In this document: positions 1 to 64,000 of the stretch, piece by piece
Numbering within the stretch: position 1 is the first letter of the stretch
How the letters are laid out: each line of letters starts with the position of its first letter
DNA from: Alphaproteobacteria bacterium
GTDB lineage: Bacteria > Pseudomonadota > Alphaproteobacteria > CAAHEQ01 > UBA3637
NCBI GenBank assembly: GCA_045598925.1
Contig: JAZRVC010000027.1
Location: 847-64,846, forward strand
Direction: 5' to 3'
DNA: 64,000 nt
Notes under the pieces: generated by a model
Databases searched by the model: none
Told to the model about the DNA's origin: nothing
The model's input: only the letters and a program-made list of their open reading frames with translations
Translations under genes and position numbers: made by a program

Positions 1-1105
1 TACTCACCCCCGATGAAGCACTTTCATTCACAGCATAACCAAGCGCTTTTAAACCATCCGAATCCGAGGTATCCGCATCCATTTTAGACATTAATGTATG
101 ACCTTGTGCCAAACACCAGTTATGTGCACTCCACCAGTTCATCCCTTTATTAAGGTATTTTTTACCCACAAAGGCCGATGGTAAAGCGCGACCTGTTAAA
201 TCTTGAGCCGATAAAGTCTTATCCGCCTTAAACTCCCCTTCTATAATTGATTTACATTGACCTTGGGCAGGACCATATGAACACTCAAACTGATAACCAA
301 CATTAGAATATGCACTAAAATAACAAAATTCTCCGCTCTCGCATTCTGCATTCGTGGCACAACCCTTGGTACTGGCTTTAGTGGGTTCATAACATTGTCC
401 TGTGGAAAGACCATCTCCTGTACACGTAGAACCCGCAGCACAACAGACCCCTTTGCATGGGAGTTGTCCATTAGAAGAACATACATATATGCCATTGACA
501 CAAGTTGTTCCTTCGGGTTGAGTTCCCGTACAGGGTTTTCCCACAGGGCCAGGAGTCATCCCCGCCGTTAAATCTGTATTATAGGTAAAAGTGGTACATT
601 CTTCATTGATATACACATTCCCGTTGGTACTAATCGTTCCGTGAATTTGTTCGCACACATCCGAATCAATACCCGATACCGTTAAAGCAAAAGTATTGGT
701 GCCTGCCGTATAAGAAACCGTTGTATCAAAAGTTGCGCCTGCCACTTTATTACCTGTAAATTCCCCTAAATTCGGGGTGGCTTTATTGTTGCGTTGGATT
801 TGGGCCGAAACCGTCATCGCCCGCATGGATGCCCCGTTTAAAATTTCATTGGCGCGGTGTTTATTCATCGCCATTTTATAGCCCGCGATACCACCCACGG
901 ACAGCACCCCGATAATTGCCAAAACGCCCAGCATTCCAACCATAGAGCGACCCGTCTCCCCTGTCATTCTGAAGGCGTTAGCCGAAGGATCCATGGATCC
1001 TTCGCGTCCGCTCAGGATGACTGAGGGTGAGGTATGCCCGCTCAGGATGACGGGGGAAAGGTTTGATTGCCCTTGTTCTTGATTTAAATTTAATTTTTTA
1101 ATCAT
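1..1105 (-). CDS. Secreted cysteine-rich lectin-like protein with a type-IV-prepilin-like leader; the 3' end of the gene lies beyond the window edge
   Basis: I translated the minus strand by hand from the ATG at 1105..1103 (RBS GGAGA 7 nt upstream). It is open for all 368 codons to position 1. The N-terminus reads ...TGETG|RSMVGMLGVLAIIGVLSVGGIAGY, which resembles a prepilin leader plus hydrophobic helix and is very similar to the 63707 gene. This is followed by a Cys-rich region and a C-terminal ...MNWWSAHNWCLAQGHTLMS segment like the start of a C-type lectin domain. The track ORF 241..501(-) is a different frame. Confidence 0.7.
   Translation of the reverse strand, partial: MIKKLNLNQEQGQSNLSPVILSGHTSPSVILSGREGSMDPSANAFRMTGETGRSMVGMLGVLAIIGVLSVGGIAGYKMAMNKHRANEILNGASMRAMTVSAQIQRNNKATPNLGEFTGNKVAGATFDTTVSYTAGTNTFALTVSGIDSDVCEQIHGTISTNGNVYINEECTTFTYNTDLTAGMTPGPVGKPCTGTQPEGTTCVNGIYVCSSNGQLPCKGVCCAAGSTCTGDGLSTGQCYEPTKASTKGCATNAECESGEFCYFSAYSNVGYQFECSYGPAQGQCKSIIEGEFKADKTLSAQDLTGRALPSAFVGKKYLNKGMNWWSAHNWCLAQGHTLMSKMDADTSDSDGLKALGYAVNESASSGVS
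961..1056. mobile_element. RPE-like palindromic element (about 96 bp) inserted in frame in the leader of the 1..1105 gene
   Basis: There is a perfect 22-bp palindrome cgaaggatccatggatccttcg (983..1004). It is flanked by imperfect inverted arms (gtcattctgaaggcgttagccgaagg / ccttcgcgtccgctcaggatgac) and a direct repeat of cgctcaggatgac (1009..1021 and 1040..1052). The element encodes ...PVILSGHTSPSVILSGREGSMDPSANAFRM... without breaking the reading frame. Confidence 0.5.
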
Positions 1106-1693: not shown

Positions 1694-1733
1694 AAAAGCC
1701 TATCGCTTGGATAGGCTTTCTTTTTCAAATAAA
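1694..1733 (+). terminator. Rho-independent terminator after the ferredoxin gene
   Basis: Hairpin aagcctatc-gcttg-gataggctt followed by a T-rich run (tctttttc). Confidence 0.6.
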
Positions 1734-1742
1734 GGTGCGACA

Positions 1743-2678
1743 ATGATTTTTAAGGCAAACAAACAGAATATCCAAAAGGCCGCCCGCTTGATTCAATCGG
1801 GTGAAGTCGTGGCTTTCCCCACCGAAACCGTCTATGGTTTGGGGGCCAGTGCCTATAATTCCAAGGCTATTGCCAAAATCTTTGCCATTAAAAATCGTCC
1901 CACTTTCAACCCGTTGATTTCCCATATTGCCGACATTGACTTTTTAAAAGAATATGCCGAAACCGATGAACGCGTGTTGGCATTGGCCAAAAAATTTTGG
2001 CCGGGGCCTATGACCTTTATTTTAAACAGAAAAGACAAAAATCCTGCTTTGGATTTGGCCTGTGCAGGTTTGGAAAAAATCAGTGTCCGTATGCCGAATC
2101 ATCCGGTTGCTTTAGACCTGATTAAAGCGGCGGGGCTGCCCATTGTCGCGCCTTCCGCCAACAAATCCCAGACCATTAGCCCCACGACAGCCCAACACGT
2201 TCAAAACAGTTTGGGCGATATCGTCCCGATGATTTTGGATGCGGGGCCTTGTGCCATTGGGGTAGAATCCACCATTTTGGATATGACACACCCCCAAATT
2301 GTCGTCTTGCGCGCGGGGGGATTGGCCGCCGAAAAAATAGAAGACTTCTTGGGCGAAAAGGTCTTGTTTTCTGACGGAAACCCAAATAAGCCCTCTTCCC
2401 CAGGGCAACTGCTGAAACACTATGCACCCAAATACACCACCCAAATCAATGTGGAACAACCCGAATCAGATGAATTTTTTATCGGCTTTGGGGCTTTGGA
2501 TGGGGATTTAAATTTAAGCCCCACAGGAAATTTAGAGGAAGCCGCCGCCAATCTCTTTTTAATGATGCATCAGGCCGAAGAACAATCCCAAAAAACAAAA
2601 ATCGCCATCGCCCCTATCCCGAATATCGGTTTGGGTCGGGCGATAAATGATAGAATTAAACGCGCTTCGTATAAGTAA
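1743..2678 (+). CDS. tsaC: L-threonylcarbamoyladenylate synthase (Sua5/TsaC, long form)
   Basis: The product has a YrdC-type core (VVAFPTETVYGLGA) plus a C-terminal Sua5 domain. The start is set at the ATG at 1743 (RBS AGGTG) rather than the track start 1707, which lies inside the upstream terminator. Confidence 0.85.
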   Translation: MIFKANKQNIQKAARLIQSGEVVAFPTETVYGLGASAYNSKAIAKIFAIKNRPTFNPLISHIADIDFLKEYAETDERVLALAKKFWPGPMTFILNRKDKNPALDLACAGLEKISVRMPNHPVALDLIKAAGLPIVAPSANKSQTISPTTAQHVQNSLGDIVPMILDAGPCAIGVESTILDMTHPQIVVLRAGGLAAEKIEDFLGEKVLFSDGNPNKPSSPGQLLKHYAPKYTTQINVEQPESDEFFIGFGALDGDLNLSPTGNLEEAAANLFLMMHQAEEQSQKTKIAIAPIPNIGLGRAINDRIKRASYK

Positions 2679-23815: not shown

Positions 23816-26038
23816 CTACTCCCTACACACAGCATGGCCATTATAGTTGTTGCGACCTGCGTTACCCTCATAACCATCGTAGGCCACAAGGCGCGCGTAG
23901 CAGGAAGTATCTCTAAGCGGTGTACTCGTCCAAATATAGTTAGCAACTGCTGCACCAAACATTTTTCGTAAAGTGTTGGCCCGCGTTTTATCTGTGGGAA
24001 TTACACCTGTATATGTTTGAACCGCACTATTTACTTCATCCAATGTAACAAGAGATAAATTCTGAGCTTGACACCAATTATTGGCACTATACCAACTCAT
24101 CATTGTGTTACTATAGGTCCAACCCGTAAATGCAGTGGGATTCTCTTCAACTGTAGAAACAACTCCCCCCATATAATCTGATACTTGCTTACATGTCCCT
24201 ATCGTAGAAACATCACAACCATTAATAACAAGGCGTACACCCGTTGTTAGAAGACAGAACTCTCCCGGATTCGGACAATCCACATTTGTGGCACAACCTT
24301 CTGGTTTATAACATTCCCCCAATGTAGTGCCATCTGCAGAACAAGTATATCCTTTGGCACAACAAACCGCCGTATCACCAATACCACATTTTACCTGACC
24401 ATTAGCACATTCACTGCACTTATAATAAGTTGTCGTGGGTGTCGTACAGGTTGTTTCTTTTCCTTCTGCACATTCTGGTATTGATTCAGTTATTGTCCAA
24501 CTATCATCACAGGTATTAGCAACACATTCGTCCCCTTCTAAATGATACCCTGTATTACATTCACTGCACTTATAATAAGTTGTCGTGGGTGTCGTACAGG
24601 TTGTTTCTTTTCCTTCTGCACATTCTGGTATTGATTCAGTTATTGTCCAACTATCATCACAGGTATTAGCGATACATTTTCCCTCATCATTTTCATAATA
24701 TCCAGAGACACAGTCCCCACACTTTTGAGATATAGAAGGTTTTTGTTTTGGTACCCTATGCGCTTCTTCACAAGAATTAAAACATACACGACTATATTTC
24801 GTATTTGTCGTAGTATCACAATAGGCTTTTTCTTTTTCTGTATATGTACAGGCCGGAACCGGCATAGATGGGAAAACAGCACAAATCCCATCTGCACAAA
24901 TCTTTTGACAATCGTTACCACAATCTGAATTTTTTTCACAAGGAACGACACAATCTTGTATTGATTCATCATAATTTTCTATAGCCTGATTACAGAAGCA
25001 AGAAACCTCTCCTTCTTCTGTCATCATCGTTTTAATAAATCCACCTTTTCCAACAGGAGAACCAAGTGCACACATATTAGAAATACATTTACCTTTATCA
25101 TTTTCATAATATCCAGAGAGACAATCCCCACATTTAGAGGATATATGTGCATCTTTTTCCCGATGCAGTGCGTTACAAGAAGTACAAGCATAATTGTGAT
25201 ACTCATTTAACTCTGTATCACAGTAGGCATTTACACGAATAGTATAATCAGATCCCCCCATACCATTACAAGATGGAATGAGACCAAAATTACGTCGTTC
25301 TTCACAAATTCCCTCACTACACTCTTCTTCGCAATCTGGTTTACAATGAAGATTAGTCATACATTGAACACACTGACTTCCATTCCAATAAGGGGTATCA
25401 CCTGAACACAGGATACAACGTCCCTCTATATCATGATATTCTCCCACACAATCTCCGCATTCGCCATTCGTTCCGTCTTGACGATTTAAAGAGGCGCAAC
25501 TGACACAGCCAGTTTGGGTGTCGTTTAAGGCGGTACCGTCTTCACAAACACAACTTAAATTTTCCCAAGTACTGCCGATATTTTTAAAGCCTTCCTGACA
25601 AGCAAAACTTTCATTAGAGCAATCCGCATGATTTGGACACGCATAGCATTTATCTGTGCCACCAGGGGCAAAAGTACCTTCATCACACGCCACACATTCG
25701 GCCTTGCCCGCCACAGAGTGTGTTCCGGGGCCACACAAGGTACATTCATTTTGGCCATCGCTATAATAGCCCGTGGGACAAGGCTCACAGTTGCCGTCTT
25801 TGGCCACATATCCCAAATCACACAAGCACACACCGAACTCTTTATAGACGTTATCGCCCACGCAGGCACCCTCTTTTAATCTTAACTTCGGGCAATTCCC
25901 AACCCCGCATAATTCCACCGCAATAGACTTCACCCCATTGGGATTTGTGGCTTTTGTTTTACCGCCAAAAAGACCACCGCCCGCCAACACAACCGTGGAT
26001 ACCAAAACCGTACTAAACAATAAAACAACATTTTTCAT
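23816..26038 (-). CDS. Large secreted cysteine-rich protein (GCC2/GCC3- and EGF-like repeats) with a C-type-lectin-like C-terminal domain
   Basis: 740 aa. A Sec signal peptide is followed by CxxCPxGxY...CxxC repeats along most of the length. The C-terminus ...MMSWYSANNWCQAQNLSLVTLDEVN...SCYARLVAYDG...GHAVCRE fits a C-type lectin domain (CTLD). There is an RBS (GAGGAT). It is a paralogue of 32933..34387 and of the partial gene at 1..1105. Confidence 0.7.
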   Translation of the reverse strand: MKNVVLLFSTVLVSTVVLAGGGLFGGKTKATNPNGVKSIAVELCGVGNCPKLRLKEGACVGDNVYKEFGVCLCDLGYVAKDGNCEPCPTGYYSDGQNECTLCGPGTHSVAGKAECVACDEGTFAPGGTDKCYACPNHADCSNESFACQEGFKNIGSTWENLSCVCEDGTALNDTQTGCVSCASLNRQDGTNGECGDCVGEYHDIEGRCILCSGDTPYWNGSQCVQCMTNLHCKPDCEEECSEGICEERRNFGLIPSCNGMGGSDYTIRVNAYCDTELNEYHNYACTSCNALHREKDAHISSKCGDCLSGYYENDKGKCISNMCALGSPVGKGGFIKTMMTEEGEVSCFCNQAIENYDESIQDCVVPCEKNSDCGNDCQKICADGICAVFPSMPVPACTYTEKEKAYCDTTTNTKYSRVCFNSCEEAHRVPKQKPSISQKCGDCVSGYYENDEGKCIANTCDDSWTITESIPECAEGKETTCTTPTTTYYKCSECNTGYHLEGDECVANTCDDSWTITESIPECAEGKETTCTTPTTTYYKCSECANGQVKCGIGDTAVCCAKGYTCSADGTTLGECYKPEGCATNVDCPNPGEFCLLTTGVRLVINGCDVSTIGTCKQVSDYMGGVVSTVEENPTAFTGWTYSNTMMSWYSANNWCQAQNLSLVTLDEVNSAVQTYTGVIPTDKTRANTLRKMFGAAVANYIWTSTPLRDTSCYARLVAYDGYEGNAGRNNYNGHAVCRE
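24407..24670. repeat. Near-perfect intragenic tandem duplication (150-bp period, about 1.75 copies)
   Basis: About 110 nt at 24411..24520 recur at 24561..24670. The duplication encodes two copies of CANTCDDSWTITESIPECAEGKETTCTTPTTTYYKCSEC in the 23816..26038 protein. Confidence 0.8.
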
Positions 26039-26118
26039 TTTTTTATCCTCACTTTAACAAATACAACAACACCGATATTCCCATGAATATCGGTTGATAA
26101 AATAATCTGACAATACTA

Positions 26119-26152
<34 letters not shown>

Positions 26153-32932: not shown

Positions 32933-34387
32933 TTATTCACACATGACATAGGTGCCGTTCATAGCACGAGTACCATAATCTACCCATTCACTATTATATT
33001 GCATTCCAAGGTTCCATGCATAAGTTGTTGTGTGATTACTGGTGGTCGTAATAGTTCCATCTTCACCATAACGTGTCCAAAATGCACCCGTTGTACCAAC
33101 CGCCTTATATAACTTATTATACCCTCTTCCACTAAAAACAGCATTTAAGGGAAGACCTGCCAAAGGACTAATAATTAAACCAGAAGTACCTTTTCCCACA
33201 CACATGGAATTTGCGGCGAACCAATTCATCATAGTTTTATAATAAGGATGTCCTCCTTCCAATGTTGTTCCCCAACCAGAGGTCGGAACTGATTGACATG
33301 TTCCTTCACCACCACACATCCCGGGTTCCTCACAAAAACAAGCAACACATGTCGGTCTGCAATAATAGCCCAACCCACATTGATTTGTTATATAATCATC
33401 ACAAGAACTCGGTTGCGGCTGACAGCCTGAGGCTGTATAAACATCCCCCGATGTGTTGCATTTACAAATGACTGTATCAGGTGCCACTCCAACACTTCCC
33501 GCATAACCGCCGGCCCCATCAATACTTGTTCCTTCTGGACATAGAATGACACAAGTATCCTCTTCCCTTTTAAATCCGCTATCACACACAATTTCCCCTG
33601 TTGTACAGGTGGCGTGTTCAGGACAGATGGCGCAAGCACCAGAAGTATTACAGTAAGCATTTTCCCCTTCACAGGTAATGGGTGTTGTCGTAATACACCC
33701 TGTATCGGGGTCTATCGCGTTTTCGGTAATGGCACAACTTTCTGAAGGTTCGACACACGCTTGACAGACACCTTCGGATTCGTAATAATTATCTATACAC
33801 CCATCGCAATTGCCGTTTGTACCGTCCAAACGCTTGAGAGAGGCACAACTGACACAACCGTCTTGTGTTTCATTTAAGGTGGTACCGTCTTCACAAACAC
33901 AACTTAAATTTTCCCAAGTACTGCCGATATTTTTAAACCCTTCCTGACAAGCAAAACTTTCATTAGAGCAATCCGCATGATTTGGACACGCATAGCATTT
34001 ATCTGTGCCACCCGGGGCAAAAGTACCTGCATCACACGCCACACATTCGGCCTTGCCCGCCACAGAGTGAGTGCCTGGGCCACACAAGGTACATTCGTTT
34101 TGGCCATCACTATAATAGCCCGTGGGACAAGGCTCACAGTTGCCGTCTTTGGCCACATATCCCAAATCACACAAGCACACACCGAACTTTTTATAGACGT
34201 TATCGCCCACACAGGCACCCTCTTTTAATCTTAACTTCGGGCAATTCCCAACCCCGCATAATTCAACCGCAATAGACTTCACCCCGTTGGGATTTGTGGC
34301 TTTTATTTTACCCCCAAACAGAGCGCCGCCCGCCAACACAGCGGTAGAAACTAAAACAGTAGTGGCTAATAAAATAATACGTTGCAT
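32933..34387 (-). CDS. Secreted cysteine-rich protein with a C-type-lectin-like C-terminus (paralogue of 23816..26038)
   Basis: The N-terminal ~170 aa are nearly identical to the 23816 gene product, and the nucleotide sequence is also near-identical (compare 33904..34330 with 25555..25980). The C-terminus reads ...MMNWFAANSMCVGKGTSGLIIS...YVMCE. The gene starts 18 nt downstream of mlaC with RBS AAGGA. Confidence 0.7.
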   Translation of the reverse strand: MQRIILLATTVLVSTAVLAGGALFGGKIKATNPNGVKSIAVELCGVGNCPKLRLKEGACVGDNVYKKFGVCLCDLGYVAKDGNCEPCPTGYYSDGQNECTLCGPGTHSVAGKAECVACDAGTFAPGGTDKCYACPNHADCSNESFACQEGFKNIGSTWENLSCVCEDGTTLNETQDGCVSCASLKRLDGTNGNCDGCIDNYYESEGVCQACVEPSESCAITENAIDPDTGCITTTPITCEGENAYCNTSGACAICPEHATCTTGEIVCDSGFKREEDTCVILCPEGTSIDGAGGYAGSVGVAPDTVICKCNTSGDVYTASGCQPQPSSCDDYITNQCGLGYYCRPTCVACFCEEPGMCGGEGTCQSVPTSGWGTTLEGGHPYYKTMMNWFAANSMCVGKGTSGLIISPLAGLPLNAVFSGRGYNKLYKAVGTTGAFWTRYGEDGTITTTSNHTTTYAWNLGMQYNSEWVDYGTRAMNGTYVMCE

Positions 34388-34405: not shown

Positions 34406-35005
34406 TTATTTTTTACTGCTATATTTAAAGTTTTTCACTTTCTTATTCAACTCATCCGTTAAATCAGATAAGCGACCTTGATGTTGTTGTAAGAAACTGG
34501 TGTATTCGCTGCGATAACTGACCGCCATACTCACCCCTTCTACTGTAATATCTATAATTAAAAAGGTGTTATCCTTGGAACGAATCCGCCACAGTAAAGC
34601 CACAGGTGTTTTATCCTGAATTTCACTGTCCACATAGAACTGATTCTTTTGTTGCGCAGGACGGGATGAAATAAACTTCACCGTTTGACCATCATAAAGA
34701 CCGAATCGGTCTGTCCAGGTCTTAGTTAAAAGTTCCGTAAAGGCAGATAAGAACTCTTTCTTTTCCTGATCCGTTGCCTTTTTCCAATAGGTGCCCAAGA
34801 CAAACTGACCGATACTTTTTAAATCTAAATTTGATGTAAAACGCTGACGCATAAAAGATTCCCGCGCCTGCAATGTGGGACTGCCCTTGATACCGTTTTC
34901 AATAATGTCTGTCGTTAAAGACTGCAAAAAATCAATTTGAGCATCAGACGCCAATGTGGGAATGGCCCAAAACATCATCATTAAAGTTAAAAATAGTTTT
35001 TTCAT
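34406..35005 (-). CDS. mlaC: Phospholipid-binding protein MlaC (Ttg2D family)
   Basis: 199 aa with a signal peptide. The product has Tol_Tol_Ttg2-like content (...QFVLGTYWKKATDQEKKEFLSAFTELLTKTW...). Confidence 0.75.
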   Translation of the reverse strand: MKKLFLTLMMMFWAIPTLASDAQIDFLQSLTTDIIENGIKGSPTLQARESFMRQRFTSNLDLKSIGQFVLGTYWKKATDQEKKEFLSAFTELLTKTWTDRFGLYDGQTVKFISSRPAQQKNQFYVDSEIQDKTPVALLWRIRSKDNTFLIIDITVEGVSMAVSYRSEYTSFLQQHQGRLSDLTDELNKKVKNFKYSSKK

Positions 35006-35019
35006 TTTTTATTTTCCTT

Positions 35020-35784
35020 TCATTCTTCTATTTCAAAATCAAAATCTTCGGTGGTGATAGCGGGGTCGTCAAATTTACCGACATTGATTTTCTTTCGGCG
35101 GTTTTGTTGATACATCGTGCGCAAAGTCGCATAGTAATCTGTGGACGAATTTTGAACATTATCCAACAATTCCAATCCTTTTTCACGCTTACTTAAACCA
35201 TTGACGACCACAGCCCCCGCAATGACACCGTATTCACCCCTTAAACGCCATTGGGCAATATCCGTCAAGGCATCCACCCCTAAACCGATAGCATCTCGGG
35301 GATTTGAAGGCCCCAATACGGGCAACATTAAATAAGGGCCTCCCTCTGTCCAACCCCACTTCGCCATTGTCTGACCAAAATCATTATCCGGGGCAGGAAT
35401 ATCCATATCTGTGGCCACATCAAACAGACCAAAAAAACCAAACGTTAAATTGATTGAAGTACGCACCAGCACCCATCCTGCGCTTTTAAATTCCCCTTGT
35501 AAAAGAGAATTCATCAGATAGGCCGGTTGCTTTAAAGTGGAAAAAACATTACTAATCATCTCACGGAAAAAGGAAGGAACCCCCAAACGATAGCCCTTGG
35601 CCACGGGCTTAAATACCGTCCTATCCATCACTTCATTAAAGGAAAACACAGCCCGATTCATAGGCTCAAACGGGTCGTTATTAAAATCAGGTTCATCCGA
35701 AGAAACACACCGACATCCCGTCAATAAAGCCAAGGATAAAAAAGCAACGAATAAAAAATTTACTTTCTTTTTTATTTTTCGCAT
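35020..35784 (-). CDS. mlaA: Outer-membrane lipoprotein MlaA/VacJ
   Basis: Lipobox LTGC. The product reads ...DPFEPMNRAVFSFNEVMDRTVFKPVAKGY.... Confidence 0.8.
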   Translation of the reverse strand: MRKIKKKVNFLFVAFLSLALLTGCRCVSSDEPDFNNDPFEPMNRAVFSFNEVMDRTVFKPVAKGYRLGVPSFFREMISNVFSTLKQPAYLMNSLLQGEFKSAGWVLVRTSINLTFGFFGLFDVATDMDIPAPDNDFGQTMAKWGWTEGGPYLMLPVLGPSNPRDAIGLGVDALTDIAQWRLRGEYGVIAGAVVVNGLSKREKGLELLDNVQNSSTDYYATLRTMYQQNRRKKINVGKFDDPAITTEDFDFEIEE

Positions 35785-39845: not shown

Positions 39846-41603
39846 TTATGAAATTGTACAAGCATGTGTTGTAGAATCCCAATTTTTGCCACCCAACTTT
39901 TTACATTCTTCCGACGAATTTGTCGTTGGGAATTCAGTTCTGGTTGCGGTTGAAGGCAGGAACAAAGTATTTCCTGAATCATCTTTAAAGTTATCTTTAT
40001 CAAACACACAGTAGGTTTGAACGACCGCTTTTGCCGAAGAATCAGGAGTACATGATCCACCGTTATTCTTACCCAAAGTGACAGACCATAAACCAGTGCT
40101 ATTATGTGCGACGGTATCCATTGAGTGAGCCGAACCTGCAATCTGCACACAAAGTCCCGTATCATTTTTAACGGAAACATTTGGATATGAGAAAGTTGTT
40201 CCTGAAACTTTTAATTGAGGAATCGTTATCTCATTATTAGTGTTAGCATCATCTAGATCAATCTCTTTTGACTCTGTTTTTACTCGATCATCTGATAAAT
40301 CATTATCATTTAATGTCAAAGCAGGAATATCAACAGTTAATTCTCGTTTATCCCAAGTGGTTGGTAAAACCACCAAGGCTTTTTTATAACCTGTCGGGCA
40401 ATCTGGTTTTTCAACCGCCCCCCCCCCTGATGCAATTTCCTTCTGCGTTTTTAAAATATAGTTCGGTAAAATTTCAGACAGGCTGGCCCCACCCCGAGAT
40501 GTCAATTTAACATCATTCAGAATTGAGGTATAGGCCGGATCCAAAAGATAACGTCTTTCTTGACCATTATCTTGAGCATCTGGACCGCTGTCTGCAAAGA
40601 AAATAGCCCCTTCTTTAGTTAAACGAATAGCGGCAGGTGAATTGGCCGGGTCATCTTGATCATAGCCCACATTCAAATCATTGCGCGTATAAACCGAACC
40701 ATTTTCATCGGCTTCCACCCAGAAAGTCGGCAAACAAGTGGGAGGCACATGCACCTCATCAGGATTCACAATAGAAACACCATTTGAATCAACCTCTGCG
40801 GTATTGTGATTAATGTATGACTCAGAATAACATCCCGTGGCATTCCCCACAGAAAAGTGGCCATAAGCATTTAATTTACGAACCTGTAAATCCAAATCTT
40901 TCGACAATGTCACTTTGGCTTGTTGTTTTTCATATTCGGGGGTAAAGACATCAAATCCCGTTGTGGCCGCATAAACCGCCCCGTGATAGTCGGCATCTTC
41001 CATACCGTCTATTTTATCCAAATGCCATGTTCCCAAAGAACCCGCTATTTCATCGTTGGTCGGTTCCCCATAAACGCCACCGTCTGCCCCAATCAATAGG
41101 GCAACGCGTGCCGCCCGCTTAAAGTTCCAACCTGTGGCGGGAATAGTTGCTGTTGTCGGGAAAACGACTCCGTAAATTTTAACCGCGGCCGTATCGTCAT
41201 TTTGACGATAAATCCATAAAGAAGGATTGTAATATTCGCCCAATCCCCCATCTGAAAACCACCCGTCCGGTAAATATTCGGAAATATTATCAGATAAACC
41301 ACCGATAGCACATTGATTCACATTATTGCAAGGATCACTTGGCGTACCAGTAGAACAAACAGGGGGAATTTGCTCCGCACACGTTGTTTGAATTTCGGCA
41401 GAATGGGCCTGAATATAGGCCGCGAAAGCCTCCTTAACTGTCCGAATTTCTGATGCCATTTGAATATTGTGTAATTCTTGGTTTCTTTGATAGATTTGAC
41501 GAAACAGCATTGCCCCCATCACGCCCATCAATGCCAACACAGCAATGACTTCCAACATAATAGAACCTTGTTGTGTCTTTCTTTTTTCAACTGTTAAAAC
41601 CAT
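39846..41603 (-). CDS. Very large type-IV-prepilin-like (pseudopilin-like) protein
   Basis: 585 aa. The N-terminus MVLTVEKRKTQQG|SIMLEVIAVLALMGVMGAM has a basic N-region, Gly at -1, Glu at +5 and a hydrophobic helix, i.e. a class III signal. The large C-terminal domain contains paired Cys and has no assigned family. Confidence 0.6.
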   Translation of the reverse strand: MVLTVEKRKTQQGSIMLEVIAVLALMGVMGAMLFRQIYQRNQELHNIQMASEIRTVKEAFAAYIQAHSAEIQTTCAEQIPPVCSTGTPSDPCNNVNQCAIGGLSDNISEYLPDGWFSDGGLGEYYNPSLWIYRQNDDTAAVKIYGVVFPTTATIPATGWNFKRAARVALLIGADGGVYGEPTNDEIAGSLGTWHLDKIDGMEDADYHGAVYAATTGFDVFTPEYEKQQAKVTLSKDLDLQVRKLNAYGHFSVGNATGCYSESYINHNTAEVDSNGVSIVNPDEVHVPPTCLPTFWVEADENGSVYTRNDLNVGYDQDDPANSPAAIRLTKEGAIFFADSGPDAQDNGQERRYLLDPAYTSILNDVKLTSRGGASLSEILPNYILKTQKEIASGGGAVEKPDCPTGYKKALVVLPTTWDKRELTVDIPALTLNDNDLSDDRVKTESKEIDLDDANTNNEITIPQLKVSGTTFSYPNVSVKNDTGLCVQIAGSAHSMDTVAHNSTGLWSVTLGKNNGGSCTPDSSAKAVVQTYCVFDKDNFKDDSGNTLFLPSTATRTEFPTTNSSEECKKLGGKNWDSTTHACTIS

Positions 41604-41627: not shown

Positions 41628-43205
41628 TTAAGATACATCTTCAGAATTTACCCCTTTATAGTATATGGGAAAACGCCCTCTATCTTCTTTATACATATCG
41701 TGAATTTCATCCTGTGTCAAGGCTCGGTCAAAAAAGCGCACACCATAGATCTGAGTGCGTTGTTCTGGCGTCGCGGTTCCCAAGTGTTTTATTTCCATTT
41801 TATTTGTCCCCAAAGTAAATGAATTAAGATTAGCCAGTTCATCAGGATATTCGTTCAAATCTATACTCATTTCAGGTTCTTTTAAATCATCCGTAAAAAG
41901 ATAGATGTGATTGCCTTGACGTTGCAAAGTCAGTGAATGGATTAAACGTCTTTTGATATCAAAATCCAAAACAGGAATTTTCCCCGAAGCCCCATTACCC
42001 AATACATTTAATTCCAATACGGTAGGCTTGGTCAAATCGGCCTCATCTGCATTGGATGTATCTATGGGACGCGCTGTCAAGGTTAAAAACCCGCCTGTTC
42101 CACTTTCAAAACGGATTAAATCCACAGCAGGATTTATATCATGAACAGCACCGACACTGGAAGCCGTTTGCGGGTCAAATCCCACCAATAAGGTCAAGGT
42201 AAAATCATGGGTTAAAACACCCGAATTGATATCAAAATCGACGGCTGTATTTGGTCCTTCTAATGTAATGGCGGGACGTTTAACACTATCCGGTCCAAAA
42301 TAGGCCCCATTTAAATCACTAAAGACTTTGGTAGATGTATCATACTTCCCCGCTACAGTCGTGGAGACCAAATCCAACCACTTACCGGTTGTACCTTCTA
42401 AACGGGATTTAGACGAACTATTCGGGGCGTGTTTGGCTTGGTTATCCAAGCCATCCCAAAAATGCACCAAATTGGCAGGATAATAGGCAAAGGGGCCTTG
42501 TTTAACCTTGGACATACAAAGAAACATATCTGATGTCGGTCCCGAAGGAAACAACACTGCAACCAACCCCGCGGGAATCGGCTTAGCACAGACACCATTT
42601 TTAATGGCCCTGACACCATTATCTAAACAAAAGTTCCCCGTGCTGGTCGGGTCATCAAAAATTGTTCCACAGGTTTGAGAACCTGATGTGCGGGTAGCAA
42701 AGGAACGGCGCCAACGTTCATTACGACGGGCGCGAGAAGTACTTTCTTGTGGCCACCAAGCGGGACGTTCATATTCGTTTTTTGCCGCATCATAATACAG
42801 CCCACCATAGGTCACCACATAGATATTGTCCGAATCTTTACAGGCCTGAGCGGCTGTACCGGCCGTATTTAAACAAGCGATACGCGACACAAAGCAAGGG
42901 GCATCATCTGCCGCCAAAGGATCCAAAGCAGCATTATTATAACACATTTCCGAACCCAAATGGATATCCATATATTCCAAAAATTCGGGTTGAAGATTAA
43001 AAACAGTCCTGTCATCTGCGGGGTCGGGTTTTTGTATCCCGTACCAACGACGCAAATAATCTTTTGCGGCTTGATGTTGGCTTAAAAAAGATTGGATAAA
43101 GGGTTCACCCTGAAAGACCTCTATATTCAAGCGGTCTTCACGTGGGGAAAGCGTGTAAAACAAAATCCCCGCCAAGAATGTCAAAACAGCCATTAAATAG
43201 AGCAT
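41628..43205 (-). CDS. Membrane-anchored protein with a C-terminal LamG/concanavalin-A-like lectin-fold domain
   Basis: 525 aa. A single N-terminal TM (MLYLMAVLTFLAGILFYTL) is present, with a strong RBS (AGGGGGA) and an in-frame TAA immediately upstream. The C-terminus ...HIYLFTDD...SFTLGT...YGVRFFDRALTQDEIHDMY matches the Laminin_G_3 pattern. It sits directly upstream of the prepilin-like gene. Confidence 0.55.
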   Translation of the reverse strand: MLYLMAVLTFLAGILFYTLSPREDRLNIEVFQGEPFIQSFLSQHQAAKDYLRRWYGIQKPDPADDRTVFNLQPEFLEYMDIHLGSEMCYNNAALDPLAADDAPCFVSRIACLNTAGTAAQACKDSDNIYVVTYGGLYYDAAKNEYERPAWWPQESTSRARRNERWRRSFATRTSGSQTCGTIFDDPTSTGNFCLDNGVRAIKNGVCAKPIPAGLVAVLFPSGPTSDMFLCMSKVKQGPFAYYPANLVHFWDGLDNQAKHAPNSSSKSRLEGTTGKWLDLVSTTVAGKYDTSTKVFSDLNGAYFGPDSVKRPAITLEGPNTAVDFDINSGVLTHDFTLTLLVGFDPQTASSVGAVHDINPAVDLIRFESGTGGFLTLTARPIDTSNADEADLTKPTVLELNVLGNGASGKIPVLDFDIKRRLIHSLTLQRQGNHIYLFTDDLKEPEMSIDLNEYPDELANLNSFTLGTNKMEIKHLGTATPEQRTQIYGVRFFDRALTQDEIHDMYKEDRGRFPIYYKGVNSEDVS

Positions 43206-63706: not shown

Positions 63707-64000
63707 ATGAAACAAAAAAAACGTGAATCCGGCCGCAGTTTATTGGAAATGTTGGCTGTTATTGCTTTAATTGGCATCCTGACAATCGGGGGAATTAAAG
63801 GGTATAGAGCGTTAGCAACACGTTTTGAAGTTCGGGCGGTTGCCGAAGCAATGACACGTTATGTGGTCAAACGTCGGCATGAAGCCATGACCAAAAAAGG
63901 CCGAGAAGAACATGAGCAAACGGTGACAAGCCCAGAAATTCCCCATGGCGTTTCCTTTAAAATTTCAAACGATGTGGTTAATCATTTAATTGTGATTAAA
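63707..64000 (+). CDS. Type-IV-prepilin-like (pseudopilin-like) protein, 5' portion (runs off the window edge)
   Basis: MKQKKRESG|RSLLEMLAVIALIGILTIGGIKGY... is a class III leader with Gly at -1 and Glu at +5. RBS AAGGAGA. It is very similar to the N-terminus of the 1..1105 gene. Confidence 0.65.
   Translation, partial: MKQKKRESGRSLLEMLAVIALIGILTIGGIKGYRALATRFEVRAVAEAMTRYVVKRRHEAMTKKGREEHEQTVTSPEIPHGVSFKISNDVVNHLIVIK

Follow-up and report, generated by a model that had tools for sequence, protein, structure and literature searches.

We found that three genes in a 64,000-nucleotide (nt) stretch of alphaproteobacterial DNA (NCBI GenBank assembly GCA_045598925.1, contig JAZRVC010000027.1, positions 847 to 64,846; hereafter the window) encode paralogous, cysteine-rich proteins that end in a compact domain with a predicted C-type-lectin fold. 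We consider it probable that these proteins belong to a lineage-specific, multigene bacterial family of exported binding proteins displayed on the cell surface or on a pilus, that is, adhesins. Gene A (window positions 23816..26038, minus strand; library protein P0001) is listed as an open reading frame (ORF) of 740 amino acids (aa), of which 76 (10.3%) are cysteines. Gene B (32933..34387, minus strand) encodes 484 aa with 46 cysteines and has a stalk unlike that of A and a divergent subtype of the C-terminal domain. Gene C (1..1105, minus strand), whose 3' end lies beyond the window, comprises a pilin-like N-terminus, a Cys-rich linker, a small disulfide knot and the beginning of the domain. 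Its full-length form was recovered by an exhaustive protein search (P0002, 406 aa, C-terminus ...RPVCSG). All three ORFs exist as an earlier interpretation made from the letters alone (hereafter the sequence-only reading) had described them.

The paralogy is evident at the protein level. A and B align over their N-terminal ~340 aa (blastp, E = 1e-142), and A and C align over ~240 aa (A 425-665; E = 5e-23). The parts that C has in common with A are a short Cys-rich linker, a knot of the form C-A-T-N-x-[DE]-C-x(2,3)-G-E-F-C and the C-terminal domain. This domain occupies 23819..24166 in gene A (aa 625-740) and 32936..33295 in gene B (aa ~365-484, ...YYKTMMNWFAANSMCVGKG...YVMCE), in both cases on the minus strand.

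The C-terminal module is a compact, non-canonical C-type-lectin-like domain

Word-indexed searches, run with the C-terminal domain of A alone or with a 4-sequence alignment, returned no homologues. A profile of the three window copies was then run against 1.84 billion representative proteins in an exhaustive HMMER search, which gave 58 matches, and about 50 of these are bacterial proteins bearing the same module. The remainder includes multi-domain Lectin_C proteins confirmed by Pfam (P0007, P0021, P0034 and P0044) and the repetitive P0010 and P0013, which are probably spurious. We assembled 38 bacterial domains, among them that of B and with canonical C-type-lectin-like domains (CTLDs) left aside, into an alignment (A3) in which W25, A28, C32 and C114 are invariant and W79 is near-invariant (at least 90%). 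The alignment carries the CTLD signature: the Cys of W-x2-A-x3-C in α1 and the Cys of the last strand, a predicted pair, together with the Trp of the β2 "WIGL". The domain of B retains the invariant W, A, C ... W ... C columns. The common W-x2-A-x3-C...Cys module proposed by the sequence-only reading is real; the ending ...C[RE]E that was ascribed to it fails for C, which ends in PVCSG.

When the A3 profile was compared with the PDB, all 24 matches with E < 1 were CTLD proteins. The best was the PLA2R/IgY-receptor (E = 1.8e-5), DEC-205, langerin and botrocetin were also among them, and L-selectin aligned end to end. Profile-profile comparison by hhalign between A3 and an alignment of canonical CTLDs gave a probability of 95.5% and E = 1.5e-8, over 35 β1-α1 columns only. 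With A3 as input, AlphaFold2 produced a model with a predicted local distance difference test score (pLDDT) of 83.4 and a predicted template modelling score (pTM) of 0.77, and we used this family-alignment model only, setting aside a single-sequence prediction with a pLDDT of 33.6. Every annotated match of the model in a Foldseek search of the PDB and a viral library was a CTLD or lectin-fold protein, and its closest structural neighbours include the bacterial adhesin tips Bd2740, intimin and invasin. By structure comparison, the predicted topology, β1-α1-α2-β2-β3-β4-β5, is that of a CTLD. A single sequence searched with phmmer against the PDB reached the mannose receptor and CLEC10A at E = 0.15-0.2. 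With matches from the A3 profile, hhalign, AlphaFold2 and Foldseek, the earlier call of a CTLD stands: at the level of profile and predicted fold, the C-terminal module of A, B and C is a C-type-lectin-like domain.

The domain is not, however, a canonical member of that fold. Lectin_C (PF00059) gives no match to A or B at E <= 1 and matches only 3 of the 38 family domains weakly (best E = 1.1e-3), without reaching its threshold. The Pfam thresholds of Intimin_C, Xlink and Lcl_C/DUF1566 (PF07603) are likewise not reached by family domains, and NCBIfam has no match for A, B or C. By database criteria, the domain is a new family inside a known fold. Neither EPN/QPD nor WND motifs occur in any of 60 family domains. 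Measured from the β2 Trp to the last Cys, the family median is 35 aa, as against ~66 aa in a canonical CTLD (P0034, by eye), and in the AlphaFold2 model the place of the long-loop region is taken by a short hairpin only. On sequence and model, then, this is a compact, non-canonical CTLD with neither a long-loop region nor the Ca2+/sugar motifs.

With metazoan Lectin_C domains (selectins, mannose receptor/PLA2R, natural killer receptors), the family has in common the fold and the W-x2-A-x3-C (α1)...W (β2)...C (β5) framework. Unlike them, it has no long loop, no EPN/QPD-WND site and a sub-threshold Pfam score; it often has extra disulfides in the α1-α2 connection, and the domain lies C-terminal to the Cys-rich repeats. 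These differences bear on the proposal that the proteins are eukaryote-derived, host-mimicking effectors or adhesins acquired by horizontal transfer, with a selectin-like CTLD joined to EGF or GCC2_GCC3 repeats. The C-terminal-domain profile does reach metazoan Lectin_C proteins, and the stretch at aa 77-135 of A and B is similar to repeats of the Ephrin-receptor type, most of which are eukaryotic. Such an origin is nonetheless very unlikely: identity to metazoan CTLDs is only ~10-20%, with homology detectable in β1-α1 only; the long-loop region and EPN/WND are absent from 60 of 60 domains; bacterial proteins (Bd2740, intimin, invasin) are among the top structural neighbours; the domains belong to a large bacterial family that includes fusions to pilin heads; and the G+C content of gene A equals the window average. 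The selectin analogy is not supported either: the CTLD follows the stalk, opposite to the arrangement in selectins, and Pfam matched no EGF domain. Nothing in the analysis shows the intracellular lifestyle that the same reading had entertained.

The family is bacterial and includes pilin-type members

We counted 54 family members, and the family forms at least 54 clusters at 50% identity in gut-type metagenomes. A third of the members (18) have a pilin-type head (ESG/RSMVEMLGVLAIIGVLS..., where a slash marks the predicted processing site, here and below), 11 have the Sec signal and GVxSIGV-type motif seen in A and B, 14 consist of a lone secreted domain of ~125 aa, and the remaining 11 are partial or of other types. 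Individual proteins carry up to 3 CTLDs. Relatives come from a Hadza gut metagenome-assembled genome labelled "uncultured Alphaproteobacteria bacterium" and from ENA, Logan and JGI metagenomes. The window itself contains a gene for GcrA, an alphaproteobacterial marker.

The head of protein C is where the pilin-type architecture appears in the window, a feature that the sequence-only reading did not mention. A prepilin-like motif followed by a hydrophobic α1-N helix lies at 878..961 on the minus strand (GETG/RSMVGMLGVLAIIGVLSVGGIAGY), and the protein has the features of a class III signal peptide, namely a short leader, Gly at -1 and the hydrophobic α1-N helix. Against the PDB, the profile of pilin heads matched 8tob (E = 6e-4), PAK pilin (0.01), PpdD (0.011) and PilA (0.012), with α1 in register. 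The true start of C is likely the ATG at 967 (M47), which would give the leader MTGETG/RSMV, and short leaders are also seen in relatives. The database call for P0002 begins 46 codons ahead of this probable start (1105..968, minus strand) and thereby translates a palindromic element as "...PVILSGHTSPSVILSGREGSMDPSANAFR". Read-through N-termini of the same kind occur in P0003, P0022, P0029, P0046 and P0056, which suggests that start sites have been systematically mis-called in the family. A third prepilin-like ORF (~63707..64000, plus strand; MKQKKRESG/RSLLEMLAVIALIGILTIGGIKGY...) extends past the end of the window, as the downstream neighbour of a LapB-like gene.

Modular type IV pilins that present adhesive modules have been described, for example, the PilB-vWA and PilC-lectin proteins of Streptococcus sanguinis (PMC8179133). 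Protein C and 18 of the 54 members follow the same plan, in which a binding module is grafted C-terminally onto a pilin head. They differ in that the graft is a Cys-rich linker plus a compact CTLD, a combination for which we found no record, and in that the window copy is without Glu at +5; neither module matches an existing signature. Our literature searches returned no specific description of a pilin-CTLD family or of its gut lineage.

The mixture of architectures also bears on whether the proteins are anchored at all. They could instead be soluble secreted lectins or binding proteins, serving in microbe agglutination or targeting, glycan scavenging or toxin targeting. Consistent with this, 14 of the 54 members are ~125-aa stand-alone domains with nothing but a signal peptide, and Pfam and NCBIfam reveal no recognisable membrane or cell-wall anchor in A or B. 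We nevertheless regard this as unlikely, given that one third of the members have a pilin head, implying presentation on a filament or membrane, that a conserved post-signal motif in the A/B-type proteins suggests retention or docking, and that no toxin or enzyme domain is present in the scanned members (A, B, C/P0002, P0005, P0012 and P0018).

Conserved anchor cassettes are combined with divergent tips

The 5' parts of genes A and B form a homologous cassette, which covers nt 27-583 of each gene (25456..26012 in A and 33805..34361 in B, both on the minus strand). The cassette spans the core of the signal peptide, the conserved GGxxFGGKxK...GVKSIAV motif and the first Cys-rich region. Its nucleotide identity is 92.5% (blastn, 558 columns), with 43 differences in 556 nt, and rises to ~97% over gene nt 91-510. 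The likeness stops sharply after gene nt ~583, and none is detectable beyond that point or upstream of the start codon. The 37 differing codons comprise 26 synonymous and 11 non-synonymous cases; the synonymous majority indicates that the cassette is a conserved, selected stretch and not a very recent copy. "Almost identical", as the sequence-only reading had put it, was therefore slightly generous, and of the recent duplication or gene conversion it had proposed, paralogues and a cassette that appears to recombine are borne out, the great recency not. P0005, encoded on a separate NCBI contig, also carries the cassette, as a mosaic of A-like and B-like residues (by inspection), from which we infer gene conversion among paralogues.

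In A and B, the signal peptide is directly followed by the motif A[FL]GGG..K....G[VT]x[SA][IV]G[VI]H (25910..25981 in A, 34259..34330 in B). The motif is also present in this position in P0016, P0017, P0018, P0032, P0036, P0039, P0053 and P0058. It matches nothing in the databases and may serve as a signal for retention, docking or export.

At the other end of the proteins, the tips appear to have been exchanged. The profile of the window copies recovered P0006 as a homologue of the B domain (E = 1.4e-9). P0006 is a pilin-type protein, and its domain is 47% identical to that of B (E = 4e-28), so that one tip subtype is found on both anchor types and tips have moved between them. A metagenome scan with 9 closer sequences as the query yielded 20 further loci, 17 of them from one metagenome. 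This metagenome contains at least 13 pilin-CTLD genes of ~320 aa, whose heads are 75-93% identical and whose CTLDs are only 28% identical in the last third; at least two pairs of these genes share a contig. The combination of a conserved anchor with a hypervariable tip mirrors what we found for A, B and P0005.

Such variability recalls diversity-generating retroelements (DGRs), whose variable proteins typically bear the variable region in a C-terminal CTLD fold. The proteins studied here do have a CTLD fold at the extreme C-terminus, and the last third of the domain is the most variable part of the family alignment. However, the 3' 300-400 nt of A, B and C have no further copy anywhere within the 64-kb window, no reverse transcriptase is among the annotated window ORFs (several ORFs were not scanned), and the variation is between fixed paralogues. 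We rejected the DGR idea for want of a template repeat in the window and give it almost no weight.

Cysteine-rich stalks of variable length separate anchor and tip

The anatomy of protein A, the longest of the three, is as follows (all features on the minus strand). Residues 1-19 form a predicted Sec signal peptide (25982..26038; MKNVVLLFSTVLVSTVVLA/GG), read by eye from a basic n-region, a hydrophobic core and a VLA cleavage motif. A Gly-rich segment ending in GVKSIAV (aa 20-43) and a Cys-rich region common to B (aa 44-215) follow, and within the latter lie Ephrin-receptor-like or TNFR-like CxxCPxGxY repeats (25634..25810, aa ~77-135). Next come two internal Cys-rich repeats of ~100 aa with a spacer between them (24659..25369; aa 224-323 and 365-460), which are 44% identical (self-blastp, E = 3e-26). 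Tandem Repeats Finder detected a 150-nt tandem duplication at 24407..24678 (1.8 copies, 98% identical; repeated unit TCDDSWTITESIPECAEGKETTCTTPTTTYYKCSEC), of which the two 50-aa units at aa 466-565 are the product. The disulfide knot (CATNVDCPNPGEFC...C...C; 24188..24295, aa 582-617) stands ahead of the CTLD and is kept in most family members, according to alignments A1 and A2 and a motif census.

Cys-rich repeats had been claimed for all three proteins, of GCC2/GCC3 or EGF type. We could retain the claim, marginally, for aa ~77-135 of A and B; protein C has no CxxCPxGxY repeat, and no EGF family matches A or B in Pfam at E <= 1. PF07699 Ephrin_rec_like (formerly GCC2_GCC3) scores 17.0 bits for A and 19.5 bits for B against a cut-off of 23.1, and PF23091 TNFR_ELAPOR1_6th scores 31.8 and 33.4 bits against 33.2. 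In the PDB, the stalk matches the mastigoneme protein Mst1 (E = 7.6e-4) and EphA4 (E = 4.7e-3). The ~3 CxxCPxGxY...CxxC units of A and B are like the Ephrin_rec_like/TNFR-like repeats of EphA4, ELAPOR1 and Chlamydomonas Mst1; unlike members of those families, they score at or below the curated cut-offs, with PF23091 in B (33.4 versus 33.2) at the limit. Aa 136-620 of A, most of the stalk, match no known repeat family, and the resemblance to Ephrin-receptor repeats appears to be limited to the short N-terminal region.

Simple repeats and a palindromic element lie at the edges of the genes

A perfect (CA)14.5 repeat lies at 26121..26149 (minus strand), 83-111 nt upstream of the ATG of gene A. 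In 302 kb (the window plus related loci), no other dinucleotide repeat reaches 7 units. The repeat adjoins a promoter-like site (26113..26086) and a 10-bp hairpin (26094..26071). We regard it as a candidate slipped-strand phase-variation switch. A G10 tract (C10 on the plus strand) lies at 40418..40427, inside an ORF of 585 aa (39846..41603, minus strand) that has no Pfam match, and encodes ...SGGGA... near aa 393. The N-terminus of this ORF is prepilin-like (QQG/SIMLEVIAVLALMGVMG), with Glu at +5, and the tract is a possible second contingency locus. A 525-aa ORF beside it (41628..43205) is likewise unannotated.

The 5' edge of gene C is marked by a palindromic element (963..1051, minus strand; GTCATCCTGAGCG...CTTCAGAATGAC plus an extra half-site), the 3' arm of which overlaps the likely start codon at 967. 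Across genomes, its consensus is GTCAYYCTGAGCG..GCGAAGRRTCCAT...ATGGATYCTTCR..YTCAGAATGAC. Its predicted RNA fold has an energy of -56 kcal/mol (z = -3.8), and Rfam has no match for it. In other genomes, the element stands directly 5' of pilin-CTLD genes (loci L009, L012, L013, L014, L015, L020, L022 and L027). In one metagenome, the upstream regions of paralogues cease to be alignable at the palindrome, so that the element bounds the duplicated cassette.

The mla neighbourhood of gene B is not conserved

Directly upstream of gene B, and on the same minus strand, lie mlaC (34406..35005; Pfam MlaC, E = 1.7e-36) and mlaA (35020..35784; MlaA, E = 4.6e-63). Between the mlaC stop (34406) and the B start (34387) is a gap of 18 nt, as the sequence-only reading had correctly stated; an AAGGA ribosome-binding site lies in it, and it has no terminator-like site. 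One could therefore view these proteins as structural envelope components whose lectin fold binds the cell's own lipopolysaccharide or peptidoglycan, for example, in mla-linked tethering of the outer membrane. B is probably co-transcribed with mlaA-mlaC, and the genes are surrounded by envelope and housekeeping genes, by inspection pal, ybgF and ftsH. In relatives, however, the neighbours are unrelated housekeeping genes (PFOR, sua5, mutL, tag/nusG), so that the mla-B adjacency looks incidental. Furthermore, hypervariable tips, multiple paralogues and pilin fusions are unexpected for a housekeeping structural role. We rejected a functional tie to mlaA-mlaC on the grounds of this unconserved linkage, and the envelope role as a whole seems improbable.

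Protein C adjoins sua5 (tsaC; 1707..2678, plus strand). A 1520-aa Sec-type member with three CTLDs (locus L004) also adjoins sua5, and the position beside this gene may have been conserved while the architecture was swapped.

Discussion

We propose that the proteins are built from three parts. Export and anchoring would be provided by a Sec signal and the Gly-rich "GGxxxK...GVxSIGV" motif in A and B, or by a type-IV-pilin-like head in C. The second part would be a disulfide-rich stalk of variable length, with its disulfides formed in the periplasm, in which the Ephrin-receptor-like CxxCPxGxY repeats come first in A and B and which in A would have been lengthened through internal duplications. 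Finally, the small disulfide knot would lead into the compact domain of C-type-lectin fold, acting as a ligand-binding tip. Because the tip is without the long-loop region and the Ca2+/sugar motifs, its binding would be Ca2+-independent, and it may occur through the variable β3-β4 face, as in intimin, invasin and the Bd2740 fibre tip. A candidate ligand would be a protein or glycan, whether of a host, of a partner cell or of a particle. Diversification could proceed through shuffling of the 5' anchor cassettes with divergent tips, by gene conversion or recombination among scattered paralogues, and through tandem duplication in the stalk; the (CA)14 in the promoter region of gene A may act as an on-off switch of its expression.

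Each half of this design has direct precedents, in Bd2740, intimin and invasin for the tip and in the modular-pilin concept for the head. The tip of Bd2740, a protein of the MAT fibre of Bdellovibrio bacteriovorus, is a Ca-free C-type-lectin fold at the end of an adhesive fibre (PMC10769870). It is a fold neighbour of our model (PDB 8oks) at 14% sequence identity. It is presented on a trimeric coiled fibre, in contrast to the Cys-rich stalk or pilin head of the family described here, which also differs in its conserved C1-C4 cysteine pair, its extra cysteines and the preceding knot. Intimin D3 of enteropathogenic Escherichia coli and invasin D5 of Yersinia belong to inverse autotransporters with a β-barrel anchor and an immunoglobulin-like (Big) stalk, parts unrelated to those of A, B and C. 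No inverse-autotransporter β-barrel, Big stalk or Intimin_C was matched in Pfam, and the likeness to intimin and invasin is at the level of fold only.

Several of our results count against the adhesin interpretation or limit its reach. The adhesin role of all members is drawn from sequence and a structure model. Homology in sequence to canonical CTLDs is seen over ~35 columns only, the remainder being predicted structure, and the C-terminal domain stays below the cut-off of every Pfam and NCBIfam family. The pilin assignment of protein C is at the level of motif and profile only: the Pfam N_methyl and NCBIfam prepilin models do not match it, and it has Gly at +5 (GRSMVG), where most relatives have Glu (GRSMVE). 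Some tip-located minor pseudopilins are likewise without Glu5. We looked for pilus or secretion machinery within the window and found none. The variable paralogues of the one metagenome may partly stem from different strains, gene conversion is argued from two nucleotide sequences and one protein, and phase variation from one assembled repeat length. Taken with the evidence above, these points leave the adhesin role, which the sequence-only reading had also raised, plausible.

A more far-reaching possibility is that uncultured gut Alphaproteobacteria maintain a combinatorial, switchable repertoire of adhesins, in which anchor cassettes are recombined with dozens of tips and expression is switched by simple sequence repeats. 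The pilin-head cassettes would then be bounded by the palindrome, and the switches would be the (CA)14 upstream of A and the G10 in the pilin-like gene. We hold this to be doubtful at present. If it were true, these genes would form a system of antigenic or ligand variation comparable to pilE/pilS or contingency loci, with a lectin-fold tip as its basis, in a lineage that has no cultured members.

CTLD-fold adhesin tips and modular pilins are each already known. From our searches of the literature and of domain databases, the family, its fusions to pilin heads and to Ephrin-receptor-like or Cys-rich stalks, and its multi-copy, tip-variable organisation in uncultured gut-type Alphaproteobacteria appear to be undescribed. 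The C-type-lectin fold is usually viewed as an animal invention that occurs sporadically in bacteria, in intimin/invasin, Lcl, DGR targets and Bdellovibrio fibres. Here, a family of at least 54 clusters, unseen by domain databases and present in many copies per genome in uncultured gut-type bacteria, uses a compact CTLD that would serve as an exchangeable tip on pilin heads or Cys-rich stalks. Our result also sets right the attractive idea of host mimicry through gene transfer, which is not supported. If the proteins are adhesins, their small domains (~95-115 aa) would provide a tractable set for ligand screening, and they would be obvious candidates for the attachment of these uncultivated organisms to host, mucus or partner cells.

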